A DNA stretch of 13,565 nucleotides from Candidatus Hadarchaeales archaeon (GCA_038851565.1 JAWCKV010000025.1:1-13565), one strand, 5' to 3'. Shown: positions 263-13,565, counted from the stretch's first letter. The notes: generated from the letters alone by a model not told the origin. Translations and numbers: made by a program.

Positions 263-1027
263 ATGAAGCTTGTCATAGCGTCCAGAGATGATCCCGCAGC
301 CATGAACATAGCGTCGCATGTCGAGGACCTCATCCGTTCACGGGGGGAACACAACTTACGCCTCGCCAGAGTTTCTGGAGACGTCACAAAATTATCCGGG
401 CTCCCTGAGGAGGCGGATGAGGTCATAGTGGCCTCGAGGCATGTGGCCGAGTCCGGCAGGCGGTCCCTGACCGTTCACGTTCCAGGGAATCCTGAAGAGG
501 GCATCTTCGCGGTTGCATCTCCGTGCACGGTGTGGAAAGCGCTCAGGGCTCTGGCACGTGCAAGGGAGGAGCTGGAGCTCCCGCACACGGTTTCGCTGGA
601 GGCCACGCATCACGGCCCATGTGATCTCGAGGTCCCGGTGACTTTTGTGGAAATAGGCAGCATTGCCGAGCACTGGTTGGATCGCAGGGCCGGAGAGGCG
701 GTTGCGCTTGCCATAATTGAAGCGGCCGCGGATGGAAAAATTTTGAGGAATGCGGTCGGTTTTGGCGGACCGCACTACGCCCCGAGACATACCGATGTGG
801 CGCTTAAAACGGATGTTGCGCCCGGGCACATCTTTCCCGGATATTCAAATTTTAATCGCGCGGCAATCGAAGCTGCGGTAAACCGCACTGCAGGCGGAGT
901 GGAGTTTTTTGTCGTTGACTGGAAGGGACTGAGCGCAGAGCAGAGAAAAATATGCATGAGCTCGGCGGAGGATCTTGGTGTGAAAGCGGTTCGGGCGGGT
1001 GAGCTGATGCCACAACCAAAAGTTTAA
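263..1027 (+). CDS. dtdA: D-aminoacyl-tRNA deacylase (archaeal DTD2 type)
   Basis: Motifs SxxDPAxxNI, SRH...SLTVHxxGN, SLEATHHGP, FVEIGS, GFGGPHYAP and DWKGL; conserved position upstream of ftsZ. Confidence 0.92.
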   Translation: MKLVIASRDDPAAMNIASHVEDLIRSRGEHNLRLARVSGDVTKLSGLPEEADEVIVASRHVAESGRRSLTVHVPGNPEEGIFAVASPCTVWKALRALARAREELELPHTVSLEATHHGPCDLEVPVTFVEIGSIAEHWLDRRAGEAVALAIIEAAADGKILRNAVGFGGPHYAPRHTDVALKTDVAPGHIFPGYSNFNRAAIEAAVNRTAGGVEFFVVDWKGLSAEQRKICMSSAEDLGVKAVRAGELMPQPKV

Positions 1028-1030
1028 ATC
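1016..1030 (+). promoter_or_regulatory. Probable BRE/TATA promoter for the ftsZ operon, overlapping the dtdA stop codon
   Basis: CCAAAAG-TTTAAAT (TTTAAA at 1023-1028), about 40 nt before the TTG at 1066. Confidence 0.55.
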
Positions 1031-1065
1031 AATACTGATGAAAGTCTCTGAAGAGGATTGATATC

Positions 1066-2199
1066 TTGAAAGAAATACTTGGTGCGGTTTTCACTCCGGA
1101 GACCGGGTTCTCAATGGGCAAGCCCGGGATAGCCCCCGAAAGGACGGAGAGGCCCAGGCCAAAGTCGCTGGGCAATGAGGATCTGGAGCAGATACTGCAT
1201 CAAGCCAAGACCAGGATAGCGGCGGTCGGATGCGGCGGAGCCGGGTGCAACACGATCTCCAGAATAGTCGAGGTTGGAATTCAGGGCGCCGAGACGCTTG
1301 CGATAAACACGGATGCTCAGGATTTGCTTTACACTGCCGCGGACAGAAAGATACTGATCGGTAGAGAGCTCACCGGGGGGCTCGGAGCCGGAAATGATCC
1401 TGAGAAGGGAGAATCTGCGGCCAGGGAGGACGAGGCGACGATAAAGGACCATCTTTACGGAATGGATCTGGTTTTCATAACGTGCGGTCTCGGCGGAGGG
1501 ACCGGGACCGGTTCGGCTCCGGTTGTGGCGGAGATCGCAAAAAAGCTCGGCGCGCTGACGGTCTCTGTGGTAACGCTCCCATTCTCCGTCGAAGGAAACA
1601 GGAGAAGGGCGAACGCGGAGTGGGGTCTGGAAAGGCTGAAGGCGGTATCCGATACAGTGATAGTTATTCCGAACGACAAGCTCCTGCAGCTGGCACCGGA
1701 CCTCCCGATAGGTGCATCCTTCAAGGTTTCGGATCAGCTCCTGATGGACGCCATAAAGGGCATAACCGAGATGATAACAAAACCGGGGCTGGTGAACCTG
1801 GATTTCGCTGATATACGGGCGGTGCTGCAGGGAGGTGGGATCGCGATGATAGGGATAGGTGAGTCGGACAGCTCAAACAGGGCGGCAGAGGCTGTTGAGG
1901 AGGCGCTCAACAGTCCGCTGCTGGACGTTGACATCACCGGAGCGAGGGGAGCAATTCTCAACGTTGTCGGGAGTTCGGACATGACGCTTGACGAGGCGGA
2001 ACGCATAGTTGCGAGGGTGTCCGAGAGCCTTGACCCGCAGGCGAACGTGATATGGGGTGCTCAGATATCCAATGACATGATGAACTCAGTTCGGGTCCTC
2101 GTGGTTGTTTCGGGAGTAAAATCACCGTACGCTCTCCGTCCCGAGGAGAGGGCGCCGAAGAAGCCCGCGGATTTCGATCTCGGTCTGGAGGAACTTTAG
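1066..2199 (+). CDS. ftsZ: Cell division protein FtsZ (FtsZ1 type)
   Basis: [24 protein letters not shown], tubulin signature GGGTGTG, PNDKL and NLDFAD; adjacent to secE. The TTG start is uncertain (alternative ATG at 1114). Confidence 0.98.
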
Positions 2200-2370
2200 T
2201 TGAGGGAGTTCATTCAGAACTGCAGGAGAATGCTTCAGGTAGCAAAAAAGCCAGGCCGTGAAGAGTACTCCCAGGTCGCAAAGGTGACCGGGCTGGGCAT
2301 CCTGCTGCTGGGTTTTGTTGGTTATGTGATAATGATTATAAACTGGGCGATACAGGAAGTTCTGGCTTGA
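2200..2370 (+). CDS. secE: Protein translocase subunit SecE/Sec61-gamma (56 aa, not in ORF track)
   Basis: TTG start after SD GGAGG (2187-2191). Translation MREFIQNCRRMLQVAKKPGREEYSQVAKVTGLGILLLGFVGYVIMIINWAIQEVLA has the KKP..EE(F/Y) motif plus one transmembrane helix. Canonical position between ftsZ and spt5. Confidence 0.93.
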   Translation: MREFIQNCRRMLQVAKKPGREEYSQVAKVTGLGILLLGFVGYVIMIINWAIQEVLA

Positions 2371-2380
2371 GGCGAGCCTT

Positions 2381-2845
2381 ATGGAGGATCAGAGAATTCG
2401 CATATTTGCTGTCAGGACGACTATAGGACAGGAGAAAAACTCCGTGGACATGATGATCAGCCGGGCCAAGGATTCGGGAATTCCAGTAAAGCTGGCAATG
2501 GCCGTACCGGGGGAGATCAAGGGATATGTGTTCGTCGAGGCGGCGGACAAGGTCAGCGTCGAGCAGGCAAGGGCGGGGGTAAAGCACGCGAGAGGGGTGG
2601 TGGCAGGAGAGGTACCGCTAAGCGAGCTTGAGCAGTTCCTTGCGCCCAGACCGTCGATAACCGGGATGGAGGTGGGAGACGTGGTGGAGCTGATTTCAGG
2701 ACCCTTCCGCGGCGAGAGGGCCAGGATCATAAGGGTGGATGAGGGCAAGGAGGAGCTCACCGTGGAGCTTTTTGAGGCAACCGTTCCGATTCCGGTCACG
2801 GTCAGGGGTGACGCTGTGAAGGTGATTCAAAAGAAGGAGGGATGA
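2381..2845 (+). CDS. spt5: Transcription elongation factor Spt5 (NusG homolog)
   Basis: NGN domain (FAVRTTIGQEK, KGYVFVEA) and KOW motif (GDVVELISGPFRGERARI). Confidence 0.97.
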   Translation: MEDQRIRIFAVRTTIGQEKNSVDMMISRAKDSGIPVKLAMAVPGEIKGYVFVEAADKVSVEQARAGVKHARGVVAGEVPLSELEQFLAPRPSITGMEVGDVVELISGPFRGERARIIRVDEGKEELTVELFEATVPIPVTVRGDAVKVIQKKEG

Positions 2846-3138
2846 CGTTGAAGGCGAAGGACGTGAAACCTAACATGCGCAGGATTGATCTCGAGCTTTC
2901 CATAGTGGAGATTGAGGAGCCGCGCTCGTATGTCAGAAGAGACGGAACACAGGGCAGGGTGACCACGGCGATAGCAGAGGACGATTCAGGAAGAATAAAG
3001 CTCTCCCTCTGGGACGCCGAGATAGACAGGGTTAAGGTCGGAGACAGGGTTAAGGTGACAAACGGTTACGCCAGGACCTTCCGGGATGAGGTTCACGTCA
3101 GTGCTGGCATTTACGGCAAGCTAGAGGTTATAAAGTAA
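2842..3138 (+). CDS. Single OB-fold ssDNA-binding protein (crenarchaeal SSB / RPA OB-like)
   Basis: KDVKPNM...DDSGRIKLSLWD...GDRVKVTNGY..F resembles the Sulfolobus SSB OB fold (LKPNM, DETGRVKLTLW, IENAW..F). ATGA overlap with spt5 and SD GGAGG upstream. Confidence 0.82.
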   Translation: MTLKAKDVKPNMRRIDLELSIVEIEEPRSYVRRDGTQGRVTTAIAEDDSGRIKLSLWDAEIDRVKVGDRVKVTNGYARTFRDEVHVSAGIYGKLEVIK

Positions 3139-3191
3139 TCCAGCGTATCTCTTTTTATCTACTCCTGAAAAGATGTGGAGGGGCGATAGGA

Positions 3192-3677
3192 TTGACTTCA
3201 AAAATAAAGGTGCTCGTTGAGGGAGGGAAGGCGTCTCCCGGCCCACCCCTAGGTCCGGCGCTCGGACCTCTAGGAGTTAACATAGGACAAGTCGTCGCAA
3301 AGATAAATGAGAAGACAGCCCAGTTCTCCGGAATGAAGGTACCTGTCACGGTAATAGTGGACAAGGACAAGAAGGTCGAGGTCGAGGTCGGATCTCCACC
3401 AGTTTCTTCGCTGATAAAAAAAGAGATCGGACTTGAAAAAGGAGCAAAAACCGCGGGAAAAGAGGTCGTGGGGGACATCAGCTTCGTTCAGGTGGTGAAG
3501 ATAGCCAGGATGAAGCAGAGTGGGTCTCTGGCCAGAAACATAAGGAGCGCGGTGATGGAAGTTCTGGGCACCTGCGTGAGCACTGGCGTCACCGTGGACG
3601 GTAAGGACCCAAGGGATGTCCAGAATGAGGTCATGGAAGGAAAGAGGGATGAGGAGATGAGGGAAAATGCAGGTTGA
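3192..3677 (+). CDS. rpl11: 50S ribosomal protein uL11
   Basis: GGKASPGPPLGPALGPLG and EVLGTCVSTGVTVDG; TTG start preceded by GGAGGGG. Confidence 0.97.
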   Translation: MTSKIKVLVEGGKASPGPPLGPALGPLGVNIGQVVAKINEKTAQFSGMKVPVTVIVDKDKKVEVEVGSPPVSSLIKKEIGLEKGAKTAGKEVVGDISFVQVVKIARMKQSGSLARNIRSAVMEVLGTCVSTGVTVDGKDPRDVQNEVMEGKRDEEMRENAG

Positions 3678-4317
3678 GAAATTTTTGGAACTTGTGAAGC
3701 AGATGCGGTCAAAATCGGAAAAGAGGAAATTCGAGCAGTCGGTTGAGATGACTCTCATGATAAGGGGCATTGACACCAAAAAACCTGAAGGGAGAATTTC
3801 CGGTGAGGCAATGCTCCCGCATCAGCCCGGCAGACCGGCAAAGGTGGCCCTTTTTGCGGACGGTGAACTCGCAAGAGTCGGAAGGGATTCAGGGGTGGAC
3901 ACGGTGCTGTCCAGAGACGATATAGGAAGATTGGGTGATGAAAAGCGGGAGCTCAGAAAGCTCGCTGAGGAGCACGATTTCATACTCGCCCAGGCAGACA
4001 TGATGGTCGCAATAGGGAAATCCCTCGGAAAGGTTCTGGGTCCTAGGGACAAGATGCCCAGACCGATTCCTCCTACGGCAAATCTGAAGCCGCTGGTGGA
4101 GCGCATGAGGAAGACCGTGAGATTCAGGGCAAGGGACCAGCAGGCGATCAGCGTCAGGATCGGGACAGAGGGTATGTCCGACGAGCAGCTGGCTGAGAAT
4201 GCGCGTTCGGTGTTCGAGGCGGTAAAGCAGAAGGTGGAGGAAAAGAAGGGCGAGATAAAAAAGGTGACCCTAAAGACCACGATGGGAAAACCGGTAAAGA
4301 TGGGGGTGGAAGAGTGA
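3667..4317 (+). CDS. rpl1: 50S ribosomal protein uL1
   Basis: KRKFEQSVE, LPH, LGKVLGPRDKMP, LAENA and KTTMGK motifs; canonical position. Confidence 0.97.
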   Translation: MQVEKFLELVKQMRSKSEKRKFEQSVEMTLMIRGIDTKKPEGRISGEAMLPHQPGRPAKVALFADGELARVGRDSGVDTVLSRDDIGRLGDEKRELRKLAEEHDFILAQADMMVAIGKSLGKVLGPRDKMPRPIPPTANLKPLVERMRKTVRFRARDQQAISVRIGTEGMSDEQLAENARSVFEAVKQKVEEKKGEIKKVTLKTTMGKPVKMGVEE

Positions 4318-5294
4318 TCTCAGCAAGCGGTGCAAAGATTCCTGATTGGAAGATAGGAGTAGTCGAGGAACTGAAGGATCTTTTCTTAAAGTATCCGGTT
4401 GTTGGAGTTGCCGACATATCCGAGGTACCCGCCCGCCAGTTCCAGCAGCTGAGGCGCAAGCTCGGAGACGATATGAGGATAGTTGTGGCAAAGAACACCC
4501 TCATCGCCAGGGCAGTTGATGGGGTCTCATCTGAGAAGCCGAAGCTTTCCGAAATCAAGAAATTCCTGAGCGGTCAGGTCGCCCTCGTGTTTTCAAATGT
4601 CAATCCGTTTAAGCTTAACAGGATCCTCAGAGAAAACAGGGTAAACGCGCCTGCCAGGGTCGGGTCAATTTCTTCTAAAGATGTGGTGATCCCAGCGGGA
4701 GAGACCGATTTCTCACCCGGCCCCATGGTGGCGGAACTCCAGCGGGTCGGGCTTAAGGCGAGGATCCAGGCGGGTAAGGTCGTTATACTCGAGGAGTGCA
4801 GGCTGCTGAAGGCGGGTGACGTGATAACAAAGGAGATCTCAGATACGCTGGCAAAGTTCGGAATACTTCCTGTTGAACTCGGCGCGAGGATGAAAGCCGC
4901 GTATGAGGACGGACTGACGTTTTCGGGAGAGGTGCTGGACTATGACGAGGCCAAGGCAGTCGAGCAGCTCAGGGCCGCATGGACGAGTTCGTTCAACCTG
5001 GCGCTCAACATCGAGTACCCGACAGGTGAAACAGTATCGCTGCTGCTGGCAAAGGCCCACTCGAGGGCGATCTGCCTCGCGGTGGCGGAGCATCTCCCTG
5101 TTGGAGAGGTTATGCACTGGGTACTGGCGGAAGCGCATCGGAAGATGCTTTCACTCGCGTTTTCGGCAGGCGGAAGGAACAGCAAAGCGCTGGACCCGGA
5201 GCTCTCCGGCATGTTGGGAATGGCCACCGAAGACGTTAAAAAGGAGGAAGCAGAGGAAAAAAAGCAAGAGGTTGAAGGAGGACAGCAGAACTGA
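4314..5294 (+). CDS. rpl10: 50S ribosomal protein uL10 / aP0
   Basis: IPDWK..V, Q.RRKL, KNTL..RA, NPFKL and GETDFSPGP; archaeal insertion domain and helical spine present; GTG start overlapping the rpl1 stop. Confidence 0.96.
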   Translation: MISASGAKIPDWKIGVVEELKDLFLKYPVVGVADISEVPARQFQQLRRKLGDDMRIVVAKNTLIARAVDGVSSEKPKLSEIKKFLSGQVALVFSNVNPFKLNRILRENRVNAPARVGSISSKDVVIPAGETDFSPGPMVAELQRVGLKARIQAGKVVILEECRLLKAGDVITKEISDTLAKFGILPVELGARMKAAYEDGLTFSGEVLDYDEAKAVEQLRAAWTSSFNLALNIEYPTGETVSLLLAKAHSRAICLAVAEHLPVGEVMHWVLAEAHRKMLSLAFSAGGRNSKALDPELSGMLGMATEDVKKEEAEEKKQEVEGGQQN

Positions 5295-5315
5295 CGCTTA
5301 CCGGAGGTGTGATGA

Positions 5316-5630
5316 ATGGAATACGTGTACGGAGCACTTGTGCTGCACTCTGCGGGAAAGAAGGTGGACGAGGAAGGGCTACGTAACGTTCTGAAGGCAG
5401 CAGGCATAGAGGTCGACGAGGCAAGGGTTAAAGCCCTGGTGTCTGCGCTTGAGGGCGTCAATATAGATGAGGCTATAAAGGGCGCAGCCCTGCCGGCTGT
5501 GGCAGCCCCGGCAGCACCGGCCGCTCAGGCTCCAGCGGGTGAAAAGAAGGAGAAGAAAGAGGAGAAGAAGGTCGAAGAGGAAAAGAAGGAAGAGGAAGCC
5601 CTGGCAGGACTGGGCGCCCTTTTCGGCTGA
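5316..5630 (+). CDS. rpl12: 50S ribosomal stalk protein P1 (aL12)
   Basis: [12 protein letters not shown]-terminus, Ala/Pro hinge, EEKKEEE tract and C-terminal LAGLGALFG; strong SD GGAGGTG. Confidence 0.98.
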
Positions 5631-5683
5631 GACCCGCGTTTTCCGCATCGGTTAAATCTTTTACCCAAGGCGAGTATATCTGG

Positions 5684-8440
5684 TTGGCGGTGCAGGCCTT
5701 GGCGGAAAGCATATACAGAGTTGAGCTTTTCAGGCGCAGGGGATTTGAGAGAAAGAAGTGCGAGGGATGCGGCAGGACTTTCTGGACGCTCGATCCGGAG
5801 AGGAGAAGATGCGGGGATACCCCATGCGTTGAGTACGGCTTCATAGGGAACCCGCCGACCAAGAGGAGACGCACGCTTCAGGAGATGGAGAGACTTTTTC
5901 TCGGTTTCTTCGGAAAGAGGAGTCACAGCGTGATAAAAAGGTATCCGGTCGTCGCTAGATGGAGGGACGACATATTTCTGACGATAGCATCGATAGCCAA
6001 CTTCCAGCCATGGGTGACCGGAGGTCTCGCGCCACCCCCGGCCAACCCGCTCGTTGTAAGCCAGCCGAGCATACGCCTGAAGGACATTGACAACGTCGGA
6101 CGGTCCGGAAAACACTTCACGCTTTTCTTCATGGGAGGACACCACGCATTCAACACCAGGAGCGAGAGGATATACTGGAACGATGAGACCGTGTCTCTCT
6201 GCCACGGTTTTCTCACAAGAGGGCTCGGCATAGACGAGGACGAGATAACATACGTGCAGGACTTCTGGGAGGGAGGAGGGAACGCCGGGGAGGACTTTGA
6301 GGTAAATGTCAGGGGACTTGAAGTCGCAACTCTGGTGTTCATGAGGTACGCCATCGGCAACGGAACCAGGACCCCCCTTCCCCTTAAGATCGTGGACACC
6401 GGATACGGTCTGGAGCGCCTCTCGTGGATCACTCAGGGCACACCTTCATGCTATGAGGCGATATTCCCGAAGGAGGTTAGGATGATAATGGATATGGCCG
6501 GAATAGAGCGCCCTCCCGCCCATGTTCTTGCTGAGAACTCAAAGCTTGCTGGAGTGATGGATGTCGGGAGCGGGCGTGACCTCAGGATGCTGAGAGAAAG
6601 GGTAGCGGAAAAAACCGGCATGACCGTAGATGAGCTTGAAAGGATGCTTGCACCGGTCGAGGCAGTTTATGCAGTGGCAGACCATCTCAGATGTCTGGCG
6701 TTCATGTTCGGTGACGGCGTAACTCCGAGCAATGTCAGGGAGGGCTATCTGGCGAGGAGCGTTCTCAGGCGCGCGCTGTGGCAGATGAGGGTGCTCGGTC
6801 TAAAAAAGCCGCTCTCCGAACTGATGGAGTTCGAGCTGGAGCGGCTGGCGGAGAGCTTCCCGGAGTTCAGGGAGAAAAGGGAGCACATAATTGAGGTCGT
6901 GGACAGCGAGGAGCGCAAATACGTCGATGCGGTTTCCAGGGGGACGAGGATGGTAGAGAGAATTGCAGTGGAGGCGCGGTCGAGGGGGGGCGGAATACCG
7001 GTTGAGAAGCTTGTGGAGCTCTACGACAGCCAGGGCCTCACCCCGGACATAGTGAAGGAAGTTGCTGAGAGGATGGGGGTCGGGGTTGAGGTGCCAGAGG
7101 ACTTTTACTCCATGGTTACGAAATCCCAGAGCAGGCCGAGGCATGTCGCCGGCTCGGTTAAAGAGATCCCGCAGGACAGGATTAAAGGGCTGCGCCCGAC
7201 GAGGCTTATCTTCTACGATTCGCCCAAGACCTCGGAGTTCAGGGCCAGAGTTGTGAGGACCTTCGATGATTACGTTGTCCTCGACCGGACGGCTTTCTAC
7301 CCGGAGGGTGGAGGGCAGCCGTCCGACACTGGATTTCTTGTTGCGGACGGGTTCAAGACAAGGGTTGTTGAGGCGGTGAGGTCGGGAGACATAGTTCTGC
7401 ACCGGGTCGAGCAGAACCGGTTCAGAAAGGGGCAGATCGTCAGAGGATTCCTTGACTGGGAAAAGAGAAGGTCGCTCATGATGCACCACACGGCCACTCA
7501 CATACTACTGGGGGCGGCCAGAAGGGTCCTAGGCCCGCACATCTGGCAGCAGGGAGTCCAGAAGGGCGTTGACAGAACAAGGCTGGACATCTCCCATTTC
7601 AGGAGAGTATCGGATGATGAGCTGAGGAGGATAGAGAGGCTTTCAAACCAGGTTGTGATCGAAAACAGGCAGGTTAGGACGGCGTGGATGGGACGGAATG
7701 AGGCCGAGAAGAGGTACGGATTCGATCTCTACCAGGGAGGCGTGGTCCCTGGAAGGATGATAAGGGTGGTGGAGGTAGATGGCTGGAACACCCAGGCCTG
7801 TGCCGGAACCCACTGCGAGAGCACGGGCGAGGTCGGGCTGATAAAGGTGATAAGGACCGAGCGCATTCAGGACGGAATCGAGAGGATTGAGTTCGCATCA
7901 GGTCTCTCCGCACTTGACATAGTGAGCGGCTGGGAGAGGGAACTGAAAAAGGCCGCGGAAGCTCTCAGGACATCTCCGGATGGAGTTTCATCTGCGGTCG
8001 GAGAGCTGTTCGGGCAGTGGAAGGAGTCGCAGAAGAAGATAGAGGCTTTCAGGGAGAGAATGGCGGGCTGGCTCTCAGAGGTTTTGATCGGTCGGGCGAT
8101 AATGGTCGGTGATTTCAGGGTCGTGTGCGAGGTGGTTGAGGGGGCGGGACCCGAGGAACTCATCAAGCTGTGCTCGGCCCTGACTGATGATAAGGACGAT
8201 GTCGTGGCGCTGCTCGCCTCAGCTGAGGGGGGAAGGGCGAACCTTGCCGCGATGGCTGGTGCAGCGGCGGTCAGGGCTGGGGTCAACTGCGGATCGATAA
8301 TCTCTGAGATTTCCAGGATCGTCGGAGGCGGCGGGGGCGGAAGAGACAACATGGCACAGGGCGGCGGACCCGAAGCGAACATGTTAAAAGCTGCCGTGGA
8401 TAAAGCATTTGAACTGATCAGGCGCAGCCTGCAGGGGTAA
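5684..8440 (+). CDS. alaS: Alanine--tRNA ligase (archaeal type)
   Basis: N-terminal CxxC..FWT..CGDxPC, YPVVARWRDD, DTGYGLER, ADHLR, LYDSQG, editing domain HTATH...CAGTH and C-Ala GGGGGR..AQGGG. Start is TTG 5684 or GTG 5690. Confidence 0.98.
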   Translation: MAVQALAESIYRVELFRRRGFERKKCEGCGRTFWTLDPERRRCGDTPCVEYGFIGNPPTKRRRTLQEMERLFLGFFGKRSHSVIKRYPVVARWRDDIFLTIASIANFQPWVTGGLAPPPANPLVVSQPSIRLKDIDNVGRSGKHFTLFFMGGHHAFNTRSERIYWNDETVSLCHGFLTRGLGIDEDEITYVQDFWEGGGNAGEDFEVNVRGLEVATLVFMRYAIGNGTRTPLPLKIVDTGYGLERLSWITQGTPSCYEAIFPKEVRMIMDMAGIERPPAHVLAENSKLAGVMDVGSGRDLRMLRERVAEKTGMTVDELERMLAPVEAVYAVADHLRCLAFMFGDGVTPSNVREGYLARSVLRRALWQMRVLGLKKPLSELMEFELERLAESFPEFREKREHIIEVVDSEERKYVDAVSRGTRMVERIAVEARSRGGGIPVEKLVELYDSQGLTPDIVKEVAERMGVGVEVPEDFYSMVTKSQSRPRHVAGSVKEIPQDRIKGLRPTRLIFYDSPKTSEFRARVVRTFDDYVVLDRTAFYPEGGGQPSDTGFLVADGFKTRVVEAVRSGDIVLHRVEQNRFRKGQIVRGFLDWEKRRSLMMHHTATHILLGAARRVLGPHIWQQGVQKGVDRTRLDISHFRRVSDDELRRIERLSNQVVIENRQVRTAWMGRNEAEKRYGFDLYQGGVVPGRMIRVVEVDGWNTQACAGTHCESTGEVGLIKVIRTERIQDGIERIEFASGLSALDIVSGWERELKKAAEALRTSPDGVSSAVGELFGQWKESQKKIEAFRERMAGWLSEVLIGRAIMVGDFRVVCEVVEGAGPEELIKLCSALTDDKDDVVALLASAEGGRANLAAMAGAAAVRAGVNCGSIISEISRIVGGGGGGRDNMAQGGGPEANMLKAAVDKAFELIRRSLQG

Positions 8441-8441
8441 T

Positions 8442-11300
8442 TTGATGGACTGGACGGCAATCGATGCGAGGTGGCAGGAGGAGTGGCGCAGGTCGAGAGC
8501 ATTCGAGGCGGCTCCGGACAGCAGAAAAAAGTTCTACCTGACCGTGGCATATCCTTACGTGAGCGGCCCGATGCACATAGGTCACGGGAGGACCTACACG
8601 GTCCCTGACGTGATTGCCCGGTACAAGCGCATGAGGGGATTCAACGTCCTGTTTCCGATGGCGTATCACTTCACCGGTACCCCCATAGTGGGCGCTGCGA
8701 AGAGGGTCGCTAGGAGGGACCCTGATTTCGTCAGGGTTCTCGTGGAGAGGTACGGGATACCAGAGTACATGCTTGAGGATTTTGAAAATCCGCACTACTA
8801 TGCAAACTACTTCGCCAGGGAGAGTGACCTGAGCTACCGCAAGGGGATGGAGCTGCTGGGACTTTCCATAGACTGGCGCAGGGAGTTCACGACGATAGAT
8901 CCTCACTACAGCAGTTTCGTGACATGGCAGTACAACAGGCTCTGGAGGGATGGGCTCATAGTCAAGGGGAGGCACCCGGTAAAGTGGTGTCCCGGCTGCG
9001 GAAACCCGGTCACCGATCATGACCTGCTCGAGGGAGAGGGCGTTGAGATAGTGGAGTTCACACTTTTGAAATACCGCATGGGTGATCTGGTTCTGCCGGC
9101 TGCCACCCTGAGGCCGGAAACCGTTTTCGGCGTCACGAATCTCTGGCTCAACCCGGAAGTAAAGTACGTGCGTGCGGATGTTGATGGCGAGAAGTGGATA
9201 GTGTCGGAGCAGGCCCTTGAAAAGCTACGCTTTCAGGGGCACTCCGTCGGCGAGGCGGTGGAGTGGAAGATTGAGTTCGGAGAGGTTGAGGTTCCGCTTA
9301 CTCACAAGAAGGTGCCGATCCTTCCGGCCAAATTTGTTGATCCAGATAACGCCACCGGTGTGGTCGGGTCGGTTCCCGCTCATGCTCCATATGACTACAT
9401 CGCCCTGCTCGAACTGCAGCGTGAGGGGGTTCAGGCGGCAATGGGTCTGAGTCCCGTCCCCCTGATTGAGGTGGATGGGTACGGTGAGGCACCTGCAGCA
9501 GATGTGGTGAAGAGGATGGGCATAGTTTCCCAGCAGGACGGAAAACTGGATGAAGCGACGCTCGAGGTCTATCGCGCTGAGTTCGCGAGGGGGAAGATGA
9601 TGGAGTGGGTCCCGAAGTTCGGAGGCATGCAGGTATCGCGCGCCAAGGACGAGGTAAAGGCGGAGATGATCAGATCAGGTGAAGCCGCGACGATGTATGA
9701 GTTTTCATCGAAGCCGGTGAGATGCAGATGCGGCAGCAAGGTGATGGTTAAGGTTGTTGAGGATCAGTGGTTCCTGAACTATGCAGACAGCGACTGGAAG
9801 TCCAGAGTCAGAAAGTGTATCGAGGGCATGCATCTCGTCCCTCCGGAGAGCAGGGCGCAGTTCGAGCACACTGTGGAGTGGCTGAAGGAGTGGCCGTGCA
9901 CAAGAAAGATAAGCATGGGCACACCCGCTCCTTGGGACCGTGAATGGATAATAGAATCGCTGAGCGATTCCACGATCTACATGGCATACTACACGATTTC
10001 ACACATACTCAAAACCGTGGAGCCGGGAAGGCTTACGGACGAGGTGTTCGATTACGTTTTCCACGGAAAGGGCGACCCAGAGCAGATCTCCAGGTCAACC
10101 GGCATAGAGAGGGACAAACTGGACGCGATGAGGCAGGAGTTTTCGTACTGGTACCCGCTTGACTACAGAATGTCCGCGAACGAACTCATTCCGAACCATC
10201 TCACTTTCCACGTGTTCCATCACGTTCAGATATTTCCGGATCTCTGCCCGAAGGGAATCGTGAGCTTCGGAATGGCGATACTTGAGGGGCAGAAGATGTC
10301 CTCCTCCAAGGGCAACATAATCCCGATAAACGCGGCCGTCAAAGAGCACGGAGCAGACGCGGTCAGGCTTTACCTGCTTTCGGTTGCAGAGCCCTGGCAG
10401 GACATGGACTGGAGGTCGGGAGAGATAGTCGCTACAAGAAAGAACATTGAAAAGTTCTACTCATTGGCCGAGGAAATAATTTCTATGCCTGGAGAGGGCG
10501 TGCCACGCTTTTCCCAGCCGGAGCGCTGGATGATGGGAGCGCTGCAGAAGCGGATAGTTGAGGTGACCAACGCGCTGGAGAACTTTGAGACGAGGAAGGC
10601 TATTCAGAGCGCATTTTTCTCATTAATGCAGGACCTGAGATGGTACATGAAACGCGCCGCCGATGCCGACGCGAGAACATACGTCTGCAAAAAGGTGCTC
10701 AACGTTTGGCTTAGGCTGATGGCACCGTTCATTCCGCACGTGTGTGAGGAGCTGTGGAGCATGAGCGGCGGCGAAGGTCTCATCTCGCTCTCCAGCTGGC
10801 CTGAGCCAGAGACAGGGCTGATGGACAGAAATGCCGATCTGGCAGAGAGATATCTGGTAGATCTCATAGATGACATCTCGAAGATAAGGAAGACCATGAA
10901 AAAGAAACCCTCAAAGGTCTGCATATATGTTGCACAGGACTGGAAATGGAACGCATACAGAATAGCCGTCGCGCACGTAAGGGCCGGCAAGGTTGATCTC
11001 GGAAGGCTTGCGAGGGATGTTGAGGAAAGACTCAGGCTGAGGCTTTACAGAGAGGACCTTTTCAGGTTCCTGAAGCTCCTGGTTGATGAGATCAGGGAAA
11101 CTCCGGAGGAGGAGCTCGATTTGAGGTGCGCCAGGGAGGTCGATGAGTTCCGCTTCCTGATAGATTCGGTCTGGTTCATCGGCAGGGAGATTGGCGTCCA
11201 TGACGTTCAGGTCTGGAAGGCGGACGATCCAAAAAGGTACGATCCGCAGGATAGGTCACGGATGGCCGTGCCCTTCAGGCCCGCAATTTACATAGAGTGA
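8442..11300 (+). CDS. leuS: Leucine--tRNA ligase (archaeal type)
   Basis: YPYVSGPMHIGH (HIGH), CP1 editing motifs ATLRPET and SVPAHAPYD, IESLSDSTIY, KMSSSKGN and C-terminal PFRPAIYIE. Start is TTG 8442 or ATG 8445. Confidence 0.98.
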   Translation: MMDWTAIDARWQEEWRRSRAFEAAPDSRKKFYLTVAYPYVSGPMHIGHGRTYTVPDVIARYKRMRGFNVLFPMAYHFTGTPIVGAAKRVARRDPDFVRVLVERYGIPEYMLEDFENPHYYANYFARESDLSYRKGMELLGLSIDWRREFTTIDPHYSSFVTWQYNRLWRDGLIVKGRHPVKWCPGCGNPVTDHDLLEGEGVEIVEFTLLKYRMGDLVLPAATLRPETVFGVTNLWLNPEVKYVRADVDGEKWIVSEQALEKLRFQGHSVGEAVEWKIEFGEVEVPLTHKKVPILPAKFVDPDNATGVVGSVPAHAPYDYIALLELQREGVQAAMGLSPVPLIEVDGYGEAPAADVVKRMGIVSQQDGKLDEATLEVYRAEFARGKMMEWVPKFGGMQVSRAKDEVKAEMIRSGEAATMYEFSSKPVRCRCGSKVMVKVVEDQWFLNYADSDWKSRVRKCIEGMHLVPPESRAQFEHTVEWLKEWPCTRKISMGTPAPWDREWIIESLSDSTIYMAYYTISHILKTVEPGRLTDEVFDYVFHGKGDPEQISRSTGIERDKLDAMRQEFSYWYPLDYRMSANELIPNHLTFHVFHHVQIFPDLCPKGIVSFGMAILEGQKMSSSKGNIIPINAAVKEHGADAVRLYLLSVAEPWQDMDWRSGEIVATRKNIEKFYSLAEEIISMPGEGVPRFSQPERWMMGALQKRIVEVTNALENFETRKAIQSAFFSLMQDLRWYMKRAADADARTYVCKKVLNVWLRLMAPFIPHVCEELWSMSGGEGLISLSSWPEPETGLMDRNADLAERYLVDLIDDISKIRKTMKKKPSKVCIYVAQDWKWNAYRIAVAHVRAGKVDLGRLARDVEERLRLRLYREDLFRFLKLLVDEIRETPEEELDLRCAREVDEFRFLIDSVWFIGREIGVHDVQVWKADDPKRYDPQDRSRMAVPFRPAIYIE

Positions 11301-11307
11301 ATTTCGC

Positions 11308-11955
11308 ATGAGGGAAATGGTCAATCCGGTTAAAGACCTCCGCTTTCTTCTAAACAGGGGTTATCCGAGGGAATCAGCGGTGAACTTCGTCTCGAATCAC
11401 TATCGCCTGCCGCTCATTAAGAGACACCTTCTTTCCCGCTGCGTTTTTTCAGAGAGTGAGGCGGTGGACCACACCAGAAGAAGAGTGAATGCATCCCATG
11501 TGCGCGGAAAATCGCTCGGGGTGGACGGATACAATGTTCTCATAACCACCGAGAGCCTCATCTCCGGTGAGGACGTGATAATCTGCGATGACGGTTTCGT
11601 GAGGGACCTCAGGGCGATTTTCGGCAAGTACAGAATTTCAGAAAAAACAGCTCCGGCTCTGCGTGAGTTGATGAAGGCGATAGTAAAATCAGGGGCGCGC
11701 AGGGTTTCCGTGCTCTTCGACAGGCAGGTCAGCAGGAGCGGTGATCTGGCATCGATTACCAGGAGGTTAATGTTTGAGTCGGGAGTTTATGGAGATGCGT
11801 TTGCTGTGGGCGCGGTGGACCGCAGTCTCAGAGACTTTGAGGTGGTTGCCACAAGCGACTGTGCGGTCATAAGAAGATGCATGGCGGTCTGGGACATACC
11901 TGCCGAGATAGCCAAGACGAAGGGCAGGGTGCTGGACATCAGAAAGCTGTGTTAG
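11308..11955 (+). CDS. DUF434 family protein with C-terminal PIN-like domain
   Basis: DLRFLLNRGY...NHYRL (DUF434), VDGYNVLIT.E, DDGFVRDL, D..VSRSG and VATSD acidic PIN-type motifs. Confidence 0.8.
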   Translation: MREMVNPVKDLRFLLNRGYPRESAVNFVSNHYRLPLIKRHLLSRCVFSESEAVDHTRRRVNASHVRGKSLGVDGYNVLITTESLISGEDVIICDDGFVRDLRAIFGKYRISEKTAPALRELMKAIVKSGARRVSVLFDRQVSRSGDLASITRRLMFESGVYGDAFAVGAVDRSLRDFEVVATSDCAVIRRCMAVWDIPAEIAKTKGRVLDIRKLC

Positions 11956-12668
11956 ACGCCCGTGCTCTCCTTCGGGTATTTCGTATAGACGTATCTCAGA
12001 AGATCGGTAAGCCTCATCTCGCTGAATTTTTTTAGGTCATCAATCGCTTTCCTCGTCTCGGGCGGAAGGCTTGCATACGCTTTTCTTGCCTCCTTCTCTC
12101 CTTCCGGAGTCAGCTGGTATCTGCGCTCTATAACGCAGTCTCCGTGGATGGTCGACTCCTTGACCTCCCTCGATATCGATATATATCCCGCCCTCTCGAG
12201 GTCTATGGCGTCCTCAAGCACATCAGGCGAGTGCGGGCCGAACATGTATGGCGTGAAGTTATATGGAGTTTCTATTCCTTTCTCTCTTTTCATGAGAAAC
12301 AGGAGCTTCTGCAGGCGGGTGGCTCCGGATATTCTTCCGCCCATTGCATGTAAAAGCGACAGCAGAATCTTTCCGCGCCGCAGAACCTCTCCAGAGTTAA
12401 CCTTTCCCGCGGTTTCCAGAAAACTGCTTTCAACCCTCAGAATCCCGGCAATTTCTTTCCCCTTGTCTGTCAGCTTGAGCATCTTCCTGAAGGGCCAGGC
12501 TTCCCAGGTTTCCTCCTCAACGAGACCATCTTTCATCAGCTCCTGTATCCGCATCTCGAGAGTCTGGGCGCTTCCCCCAACTTCAGACAGGAGCTCACGT
12601 ATATACTTTGGACCTTCAAGAAGCCGCAGGAGGATATCGGCTCCCTTGCTCTTTCTAACGCTTCTCAT
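11952..12668 (-). CDS. Winged-HTH (HxlR/MarR-like) fused to YwgA/SocA(Panacea)-like domain; putative transcriptional regulator
   Basis: N-terminal ~80 aa ILLRLLEGP..IRELL...TL..RIQEL..DGLV...LTDKG is a wHTH. C-terminal GATRLQKLLFL...YNFTPYMFGPHS...YQLTPEG...LLRYVYTKYP matches the YwgA/DUF4065-like pattern. Confidence 0.75.
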   Translation of the reverse strand: MRSVRKSKGADILLRLLEGPKYIRELLSEVGGSAQTLEMRIQELMKDGLVEEETWEAWPFRKMLKLTDKGKEIAGILRVESSFLETAGKVNSGEVLRRGKILLSLLHAMGGRISGATRLQKLLFLMKREKGIETPYNFTPYMFGPHSPDVLEDAIDLERAGYISISREVKESTIHGDCVIERRYQLTPEGEKEARKAYASLPPETRKAIDDLKKFSEMRLTDLLRYVYTKYPKESTGV

Positions 12669-12677
12669 GGCGATGCT

Positions 12678-12696
12678 TGTTTCAGTTTTCGTAACA
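12678..12696 (-). promoter_or_regulatory. Putative operator A (TGTTACGAAAACTGAAACA on minus strand)
   Basis: Imperfect palindrome TGTTAC-N7-GAAACA between the minus-strand TATA and the ATG of the wHTH gene; 15/19 identical to operator B. Confidence 0.65.
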
Positions 12697-12710
12697 TAAA
12701 AGGATTACCG
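12696..12710 (-). promoter_or_regulatory. Putative BRE/TATA of wHTH gene (probably leaderless transcript)
   Basis: Minus strand CGGTAATCC-TTTTAT ends about 28 nt before the ATG at 12668; no SD precedes the ATG. Confidence 0.5.
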
Positions 12711-12746
12711 ATACGTGCTGGATATTACTCTGAGTTATCTGAAACA

Positions 12747-12762
12747 GGGAAAACTTTATTAG
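12747..12762 (+). promoter_or_regulatory. BRE/TATA promoter of nrdG operon
   Basis: GGGAAAA-C-TTTATTA (TATA 12755-12761), followed by SD GAGGTG at 12795-12800. Confidence 0.6.
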
Positions 12763-12766
12763 TCCG

Positions 12767-12785
12767 TGTTACGCAAAGTGTAACG
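12767..12785 (+). promoter_or_regulatory. Putative operator B (TGTTACGCAAAGTGTAACG)
   Basis: Palindrome GTTAC-N7-GTAAC 5 nt downstream of the TATA, covering the expected transcription start region. Confidence 0.65.
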
Positions 12786-12805
12786 TAACGTCTTGAGGTG
12801 GGTTG

Positions 12806-13522
12806 ATGAATTTCAAATATCTCCAGAGAGTATCCCTTCTCGATTATCCCGGAAAGATAGCTGCGATCGCGTTCGTCGGGGGCTGCAACTTCAGGTGCGG
12901 TTTCTGCTACAACCGTGACCTGGTGCTTGCTCCGGACGCGATTTCTTCCATAAGCGAGAGCGAGGTTCTCAGCTATCTGGAGTCAAAGAGGGACTGGCTC
13001 GATGGTCTTGTGATCACTGGGGGTGAACCGACACTTTACAGCGACCTCCCGGACTTTCTGGCTAGGGTTAAATCGCTGGGTTATTCCGTGAAGCTTGACA
13101 CGAACGGATCCAATCCGGATATGCTGGCGGCGCTCATTGAGAGGCATCTTGTCGACTACGTTGCCCTGGACATAAAGGCGCCACTCGATGACGAAAAATA
13201 CCATGAGATTGTCGGAAGCCAGTCCAACGGGGTTACGGGAAATGTGAGGAGGAGTGTGGAGATACTGATGTCCGGCAACGTTGATTACGAGTTCAGGACC
13301 ACGGTCATACCGGAACTCGGCAGAGAGGATCTGCTGAGGATAGCCGAGCAAATCAGGGGTGCTAGACGCTACTACCTGCAGCAGTTCGTGTCTAACGGAT
13401 CCCATTTGGACGCTAGGTATTCTTCGGAGAAACCCCATCCCATGGAGTTTCTGATCAGTGTGAAGTCCGAGATTGGAGGCCATTTCGGGACCTGTGGAGT
13501 GAGGGGGGTAAGACAGAGATGA
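12806..13522 (+). CDS. nrdG: Anaerobic (class III) ribonucleotide reductase activating radical SAM protein
   Basis: SLLDYPGK...GCNFRCGFCYN (CxxxCxxC), ITGGEPT, KLDTNGS, DYVALDIKAP, YEFRTT and LQQF are typical of the NrdG2-type activase. ATG 12806 is best spaced from the SD (TTG 12803 is the alternative). Followed by an ATP-cone gene. Confidence 0.9.
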   Translation: MNFKYLQRVSLLDYPGKIAAIAFVGGCNFRCGFCYNRDLVLAPDAISSISESEVLSYLESKRDWLDGLVITGGEPTLYSDLPDFLARVKSLGYSVKLDTNGSNPDMLAALIERHLVDYVALDIKAPLDDEKYHEIVGSQSNGVTGNVRRSVEILMSGNVDYEFRTTVIPELGREDLLRIAEQIRGARRYYLQQFVSNGSHLDARYSSEKPHPMEFLISVKSEIGGHFGTCGVRGVRQR

Positions 13523-13565
13523 GCGATATAATAAGGAAGGTAAGAAAACGAGACGGCACTATAGT
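13519..13565 (+). CDS. 5' end of ATP-cone protein, probably anaerobic ribonucleoside-triphosphate reductase NrdD (partial)
   Basis: ATGA overlap with the nrdG stop; reads MSDIIRKVRKRDGTI, containing the ATP-cone signature VxKRDG. Confidence 0.7.
   Translation, partial: MSDIIRKVRKRDGTI

Follow-up and report, generated by a model that had tools for sequence, protein, structure and literature searches.

NrdR, a repressor of ribonucleotide reductase (RNR) genes, is rare among archaea (PMC9110341). HypR, a DUF24 regulator, binds an inverted repeat, and its Cys14 is conserved in DUF24 proteins (PMC3351151). Panacea domains have been proposed to act as sensors in multidomain antitoxins (PMC10440598), and fusions of helix-turn-helix domains to Panacea are already known (PMC8832971). 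In archaea, regulators bound within a promoter hinder TBP and TFB, and those bound further downstream block recruitment of RNA polymerase (PMC5937170). We analyzed a 13,565-nt stretch of DNA (the window) from a Candidatus Hadarchaeales archaeon (GCA_038851565.1, JAWCKV010000025.1:1-13565). Near its end, a gene for a 238-amino acid (aa) protein with a winged helix-turn-helix (wHTH) is divergent from nrdG and nrdD, an operon for a class III RNR. We think it probable that this protein, a predicted dimer, binds two palindromes in the spacer and represses nrdG-nrdD as well as its own gene, with an antitoxin-like domain as the switch. Binding, repression and signal are predicted from what we observed in the sequences: the gene order, the conserved sites, their adjacency to TATA-like boxes, the co-occurrence of site and gene, and the domain make-up of the protein.

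Results

Palindromes at the two divergent promoters

We found two 19-bp dyads in the spacer, at 12696-12678 (minus strand) and 12767-12785 (plus strand), where a preliminary description of the window had placed them; they are identical at 15 of 19 positions. Predicted operator 1, on the regulator side (12678..12696, minus), reads GTTAC-N7-GAAAC, and predicted operator 2, on the nrd side (12767..12785, plus), reads GTTAC-N7-GTAAC. The window contains 6 strand-matches with at most one mismatch, 4 of them at the two dyads, versus 0.57 expected from shuffles. Exact matches to GTTAC-N7-GWAAC occur at these two places only in the whole 823-kb genome. Scored with a matrix that was built from orthologous spacers and includes the window's own two sites, the dyads reach 24.5 and 22.7 bits, versus 12.1 bits for the next best site in the genome.

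Both dyads lie just 3' of elements that, compared with the consensus, we take to be BRE-like (TFB-recognition element) and TATA-like. The regulator promoter (12696..12709, minus) has a BRE-like element at 12709-12704 and a TATA-like box at 12701-12696, and orthologs likewise have an A/T box there. The nrdG-nrdD promoter (12748..12762, plus) has a BRE-like element at 12748-12753 and a TATA-like box at 12755-12762. The preliminary description had also put each dyad over the expected start site, and this part of its claim stood on the nrdG side only. There the site begins 4 nt past the TATA-like box and would extend to the expected start; on the regulator side, the site abuts the TATA-like box and would stop a few nt short. 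Expected start sites were placed from the sequence and the usual promoter geometry.

Because both operators lie just 3' of TATA-like boxes, repression in both directions is the likely effect. The preliminary description had called this placement typical of archaeal repressors, which fits published accounts (PMC5937170). In the mechanism we propose, the N-terminal wHTH, of the HxlR type, would read each half-site, and a dimer bound just 3' of TATA would block the loading of TFB and RNA polymerase. Negative autoregulation would keep the repressor level steady. Release would come through a cue taken up by the C-terminal, DarG-C/Panacea-like domain, freeing nrdGD; this is the weakest step of the scheme.

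An extra half-site at 12785-12789 overlaps operator 2. Extra half-sites that overlap or adjoin an operator, with an offset of 5-7 bp, are also present at loci L008, L010-L013, L015, L016 and L018. A second dimer, or the second wHTH-like domain, may bind there.

Conservation in Hadarchaeales

We surveyed 61 genomes, the window's own included, and found 24 full-length orthologs of the regulator, all in the same order. Divergence from nrdG/nrdD is kept in 21 of the 24, across four families (19 face nrdG and 2 face nrdD). Among close metagenome relatives with upstream DNA, 7 of 8 are likewise linked to nrd genes. The pattern GTTAC-N7-GWAAC matched 20 of 20 other linked spacers, with 30 sites in all; it had been fixed from the window alone, which makes this test non-circular. 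The gap was always 7 nt: gaps of 3-6 and 8-12 nt gave no matches, and over 500 shuffles the matches averaged 0.03 and never exceeded 2. Missing RNR linkage and a motif absent from orthologous spacers were the computable outcomes that the preliminary description had set against its own proposal, and neither came true.

The regulator-side site lies 23-38 nt 5' of the regulator start, directly after an A/T box (the site of L019 has 2 mismatches). Of 21 spacers, 20 also have a second site, at the nrd promoter, which is strong in 15 and degenerate in 5. Compact spacers have their two sites ~31 bp apart (30-39 bp), one on each side of a shared A/T box, which would be clamped from both sides. In longer spacers the first site and the nrd-side site are 85-139 bp apart (89 bp in the window), and the second site tracks the nrd TATA box.

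These spacers bear on two other readings. The sites might serve autoregulation only, with nrdGD affected merely through the short divergent spacer. The regulator-side site is indeed the more constant one, the nrd-side site being weak in 5 of 21 spacers and missing in 1, and distant homologs keep the self-site alone. On the other side, L001, L012, L017, L018, L019 and L021 keep a separate strong site at the nrd promoter, at least 74 bp from the first, and we consider autoregulation alone very unlikely. Alternatively, the protein might repress itself and activate nrdGD. HypR, the best fold match of the N-terminal domain, activates its target and probably represses its own gene (PMC3351151), and the strongest site is 5' of the nrd TATA-like box in L002, L019 and L021. 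Most spacers, including that of the window, instead place the nrd-side site between TATA and the start codon, where archaeal regulators block polymerase. Activation of nrdGD by a HypR-like mechanism seems quite improbable.

Co-occurrence of site and gene

We found that the site follows the gene. All 24 genomes that have the gene also have a TATA-like box followed by a site, versus 3 of 32 genomes of the same order without the gene (one of the 32, G001, breaks off inside nrdG and cannot be judged). Three matches is about the rate of a reversed control pattern. No site was found at 16 nrdD operons of 15 regulator-negative genomes (best 8.5 bits).

Distant homologs (32-43% identity) at non-RNR loci also have the dyad. 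It was present 5' of the homolog's own gene in 15 of 21 cases (shuffle p<0.05), representing about 8 separate lineages in a quick, midpoint-rooted tree (L182 is not in the tree). In one distant clade the gap is shifted to 8 nt. The near-duplicates L165 and L168 were left out of this test, as were L166 and L180, which have no upstream DNA; four anchors (L077, L174, L179 and L183) were placed by eye, three of them off the start codon. Neighbors of the distant homologs include BilA/C/D-like ubiquitin systems, type I restriction genes, integrase, terminase and thermosome genes. Neither nrdD nor nrdG was found at any of these loci, several of which are on short contigs.

The dyads could instead be owned by another, trans-acting factor, the neighboring gene being incidental. 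Such a factor would account for the 3 of 32 regulator-negative genomes with a match and for the regulator promoter of genus g15, which has no site (below). It fits poorly with a site that accompanies the gene into unrelated neighborhoods and other phyla, with nrd promoters that have no site where the gene was not found, and with matches no more frequent than those of the reversed control. A trans-acting owner is unlikely because the dyad persists upstream of distant homologs that lie beside unrelated genes, and we give such a factor a very small chance. The site most probably belongs to this protein family.

At L164/L165 and L176-L178, archaeal-looking BilA/BilC/BilD-like operons (ubiquitin, JAB and E1 genes) are divergent from, or headed by, distant homologs of the regulator. 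One of them adjoins an integrase gene.

Several observations weigh against a protein that represses itself and nrdGD. The 3 orthologs that are not linked to RNR genes all belong to genus g15, where the regulator gene is convergent with a gene for a 105-aa DUF5615 PIN-like protein (L043:2281-2647, L044 and L045). The promoter of that gene has the only site, just past a TATA-like box; none was found at the regulator's own promoter in the 3 orthologs, or at the nrdD promoter of the g15 genome G053. The g15 arrangement possibly shows the protein being used in the manner of a toxin-antitoxin system. Genus g13, which accounts for 5 of 21 spacers, has degenerate nrd-side sites (10-11 bits), L002 has a single site with none on the nrd side, and in L021 the TATA box lies 3' of the strong nrd-side site. 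Among the metagenome relatives the closest is L153 (79%), which has one site and no nrd gene within its 210 bp of sequence; it is labeled RNR in the tree by kinship, and the neighborhood check did not confirm that label. Six of the 21 distant homologs have no significant dyad, and that of an Asgard-group homolog is weak (6.8 bits). No conserved ligand pocket was identified in the regulator. Finally, the genomes surveyed are kin, and the counts are not independent. As far as sequence can tell, the regulator and operator are a real, well-conserved pair.

Domains of the regulator

The regulator gene (11952..12668, minus) encodes an HxlR-type wHTH joined to a DarG-C/Panacea-like domain (model predicted local distance difference test, pLDDT, 92). 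The homologs compared with it were drawn from a 50%-identity protein library whose entries have no genomic context. The N-terminal wHTH (residues 1-90; 12399..12668, minus) is the predicted DNA-reading domain. It matches Pfam HxlR (PF01638) at 31.2 bits (cut-off 20.8), a family found in 46 of 58 homologs, and its fold is closest to HypR (Z 14.5, root-mean-square deviation (rmsd) 1.5, 89 aligned residues), YodB and QsrR (Z 13-14.5). Residues G32, S33, T36 and R40 are conserved in 52-56 of the 58 homologs. The sole cysteine of the protein is residue 178, and there is none in residues 1-90. By its sequence, then, the regulator is an HxlR-domain protein and not a thiol-switch DUF24 regulator.

The C-terminal domain (residues 94-238; 11955..12389, minus) is antitoxin-like and is a predicted sensor or protein-binding module. 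K121, G144 and P145 are invariant. Folded alone, it had the DarG chain of the DarTG structure 7yk3 at the top of both fold searches, with Z 10.7, which is moderate for a helical domain, rmsd 4.2, 135 of 145 residues aligned and a template modeling (TM) score of 0.58-0.65. Among its relatives, 30 of 67 match NF048014 (DarG) and 16 of 67 match SocA_Panacea (PF13274). The window's own domain had no NF048014 match and no PF13274 match at E<=0.01, and matched PADLOC PDC-M19A at E 1e-15. The preliminary description had called the protein YwgA-like, a label returned by no library; DarG-C/Panacea-like describes the domain better. No ATP-cone was matched in the protein or among the 25 commonest families of the 58 homologs, and there was no NCBIfam match.

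Standalone relatives of the C-terminal domain are translationally coupled to PIN toxins at 4 loci, 3 of them archaeal, and in many bacteria to variable hydrophobic proteins. The bacterial pair is widespread (L078-L149 and A4) and consists of a standalone DarG-C/Panacea-like domain and a ~190-aa hydrophobic protein, mostly without a Pfam match. It is a candidate uncharacterized toxin-antitoxin or defense pair. An alignment of 28 of the partner proteins had no conserved column past the start Met, and one of these (L079) and 2 others were blank in PADLOC. In P0102, P0129 and P0135 the same domain forms a fusion with the specificity subunit of a type I restriction system. A search of viral contigs gave one match, to the C-terminal domain only.

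What the domain senses is the least certain part of our reading. We tentatively favor a protein partner or a nucleic-acid stress signal (replication or DNA damage) as the cue. A nucleotide is an unlikely choice, a metal or redox cue somewhat more doubtful, and no cue, or one of another kind, about as unlikely as a nucleotide. A macromolecular or stress cue is preferred to direct binding of deoxynucleoside triphosphates (dNTPs) because of the ancestry of the C-terminal domain and the homologs in defense islands.

Predicted scope of control and the comparison with NrdR

No NrdR was found in any of the 61 genomes, versus 9 of 14 reference genomes used as a control. The preliminary description had proposed the protein as a non-homologous NrdR analogue. 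As a regulator of all RNRs, this proposal was not supported: second nrdD operons, which many of the genomes have, and a class II nrdJ-like gene have no site. In regulator-bearing genomes, 0 of 11 unlinked nrdD operons had one (best 3.1 bits; two further unlinked nrdD loci had no upstream DNA). There was also none near the nrdJ-like gene of the window's genome (G000), which we take to be class II from its motifs and the missing NRDD match. Going by its predicted sites, the regulator is local, covering one class III RNR operon, and is not a master RNR regulator.

A true NrdR analogue, whose C-terminal domain binds ATP/dATP or other dNTPs and so ties DNA binding to nucleotide pools, would differ from the repressor we propose in its signal alone. 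The linkage to nrdGD is fixed, genes for dCTP deaminase, ThyX and dCMP deaminase adjoin several loci, NrdR itself was not found in the 61 genomes, and a conserved patch (T-R-x-x-K and G-P-x-S) could bind phosphate. Set against this, neither an ATP-cone nor another nucleotide-binding family was matched in the protein, standalone copies of its C-terminal domain adjoin genes for PIN toxins and membrane proteins, the same fusion is present at Bil-like and restriction loci, and other RNR operons have no site. We regard nucleotide sensing of this kind as unlikely.

Other targets seem to be confined to single genera. In g16, a site lies just after the TATA-like box of top6B in 3 of 3 genomes; there is none there in G008. 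In g13, a site lies just after the TATA-like box of a gene before feoB in 5 of 5 genomes and is absent in 3 other genomes checked; the names dtxR-like, for this gene, and feoB are our assignments from sequence. A wider regulon in the window's genome was rejected, the next site scoring 12.1 bits; in this genome, which is 87% complete, top6B and dtxR were not found. Single sites near genes for a Ku-ligase, a Hef-like helicase, a dacZ-ligase and a cation-efflux protein were conserved, as far as could be shown, in one or two genomes at most and were not counted.

Two g8 genomes have a conserved, non-coding-looking stretch (L036:2500-2780 and L037:2327-2563) beside an operator-like site and before the cation-efflux gene, with no Rfam or tRNA match. 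Rfam searches over 14 loci, including the regulator-nrdG locus, gave three tRNAs and no other family.

A wide archaeal RNR regulon was also rejected. The full fusion was found in 1 of 401, 1 of 301, 0 of 301 and 0 of 38 genomes of other phyla (in the large samples, the best 6-9 candidates per genome were scored). Such sporadic occurrence outside the order is as expected for a mobile gene. Outside Hadarchaeales the family is not RNR-specific and is found at defense, mobile and chaperonin loci.

We also noted a separate set of Hadarchaeales nrdD genes that open with an in-frame Zn-ribbon (two CxxC-like pairs), which replaces or precedes the ATP-cone (L264, L262, L273 and L059; the set also includes L260-L266, L269, L061, L063 and L056-L058). 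Their promoters have tandem GTAG or GTAAT repeats just 5' of the start codon. These reductases possibly repress their own genes through the fused Zn-ribbon.

Other features of the window

The window is contig C25 of its genome, whose near relatives are titled Hadarchaeota; the Atlas cluster of the protein is most frequent in the same phylum. A wHTH fusion gene divergent from an nrdG/ATP-cone operon had been described, and the 238-aa HxlR-domain protein indeed faces an NrdG2 gene. That gene, nrdG (12803..13522, plus), encodes the class III RNR activase and matches TIGR02495 (NrdG2) at 206 bits (cut-off 131). It possibly starts at the ATG at 12806 instead; GAGGTG at 12795-12800 resembles a ribosome-binding site. 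The start of nrdD (ATP-cone class III RNR; 13519..13565, plus) overlaps the nrdG stop and ends at the contig edge. A contig of the same genus (G001:C24) is identical to the window's final bases at 727 of 728 positions and then runs on into an interrupted, intein-like nrdD (NRDD). The open reading frame from 13519 is therefore assigned to a class III reductase, because this continuation encodes nrdD. The nrdD of the ortholog locus L071 has both an ATP-cone and NRDD. Intein-like insertions bring regulator-linked NrdD proteins to 1079-1662 aa (L068, which is G001:C24, L234 and L236).

The rest of the window (263-11955) resembles housekeeping DNA. Its genes include AlaRS, a class I tRNA synthetase and DUF434/DUF5616, and presumably ftsZ-like, Spt5-like and ribosomal protein genes, which we named from their sequences. 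The DUF434 gene is convergent with the regulator gene in the window and in 4 g9 genomes.

Discussion

In our best reading, an autoregulated repressor of the defense- or mobile-island type became fixed in Hadarchaeales, where it acts locally on a single class III RNR operon. The family would have begun as an autoregulated controller of defense and mobile islands, become fixed at one nrdGD operon and gained the genus-specific targets top6B and dtxR-feoB; the direction given here is unrooted. A more specific version is conceivable, and we hold it tentatively: an antitoxin-derived sensor-repressor from defense islands was domesticated for anaerobic dNTP synthesis, and its DarG-C/Panacea-like domain lifts the repression of class III RNR (in one genus, also that of topoisomerase VI) on sensing a viral protein, DNA damage or stress at replication. 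If true, the system would be the archaeal equivalent of RNR control induced by damage, with no relation to NrdR, and the sensor role that has been proposed for Panacea-like domains would become testable on a housekeeping target.

We found no description of this regulator, or of what replaces NrdR in archaea, in the open-licence text of PMC and bioRxiv (without supplements). The locus offers a concrete, testable regulator together with its predicted target and an operator of 17 bp. It points to exchange between the control of core nucleotide metabolism and that of defense or toxin-antitoxin systems, and it gives a handle on what Panacea/DarG-C-like domains sense. Its reach is an uncultured order and one RNR paralog, and its logic is the familiar one of a divergent, autoregulated repressor.

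Comparison with known systems

Like NrdR, the protein is predicted to repress both an RNR operon and its own gene by way of paired promoter palindromes (PMC9110341), and the ~31 bp separation of sites in compact spacers resembles three-turn NrdR boxes. Unlike NrdR, it has no N-terminal Zn-ribbon with two CxxC pairs (there is one cysteine in the whole protein, and the N-terminal domain is a wHTH) and no ATP-cone. The motif also differs, the spacing (30-139 bp) is set by the TATA box and not fixed at three turns, and one nrdGD operon is covered, not the several RNR operons of the genome.

The protein resembles HxlR/DUF24 regulators (MarR-type; HypR, YodB and QsrR) in the fold of its N-terminal domain and its above-cut-off Pfam match. 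It differs from them in having no N-terminal redox cysteine, an added 145-aa domain and an archaeal promoter context. With Panacea/SocA and the C-terminal part of DarG it shares a fold and distant sequence similarity, and standalone archaeal relatives precede PIN toxins. In contrast to DarG, the regulator has no macrodomain, its N-terminal domain being an HxlR wHTH, and in contrast to Panacea/SocA antitoxins its predicted target is a housekeeping operon. No cognate toxin gene was found beside the regulator in the window or at the 9 RNR-linked loci read, where the neighbors were DUF434, ThyX, dCMP deaminase and other housekeeping genes.

Controllers of immune operons include CapH and BrxR. The family resembles such controllers, among them CapK-CapS (PMC13373217), in that a small repressor gene heads, or is divergent from, defense operons: BilA/C/D-like and type I restriction genes have distant homologs of the regulator beside them. 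Here, unlike in CapK-CapS, there is a single fused protein, and no partner kinase or peptidase was seen.

Crt1/Rfx1 of yeast is a winged-helix protein that recognizes X-boxes with GTTRC-like half-sites and is released by DNA damage; the gap between its half-sites differs from that of the operator described here. It represses RNR genes through several sites (PMC3245922). The likeness is one of logic, several sites at RNR genes, and we claim no homology.

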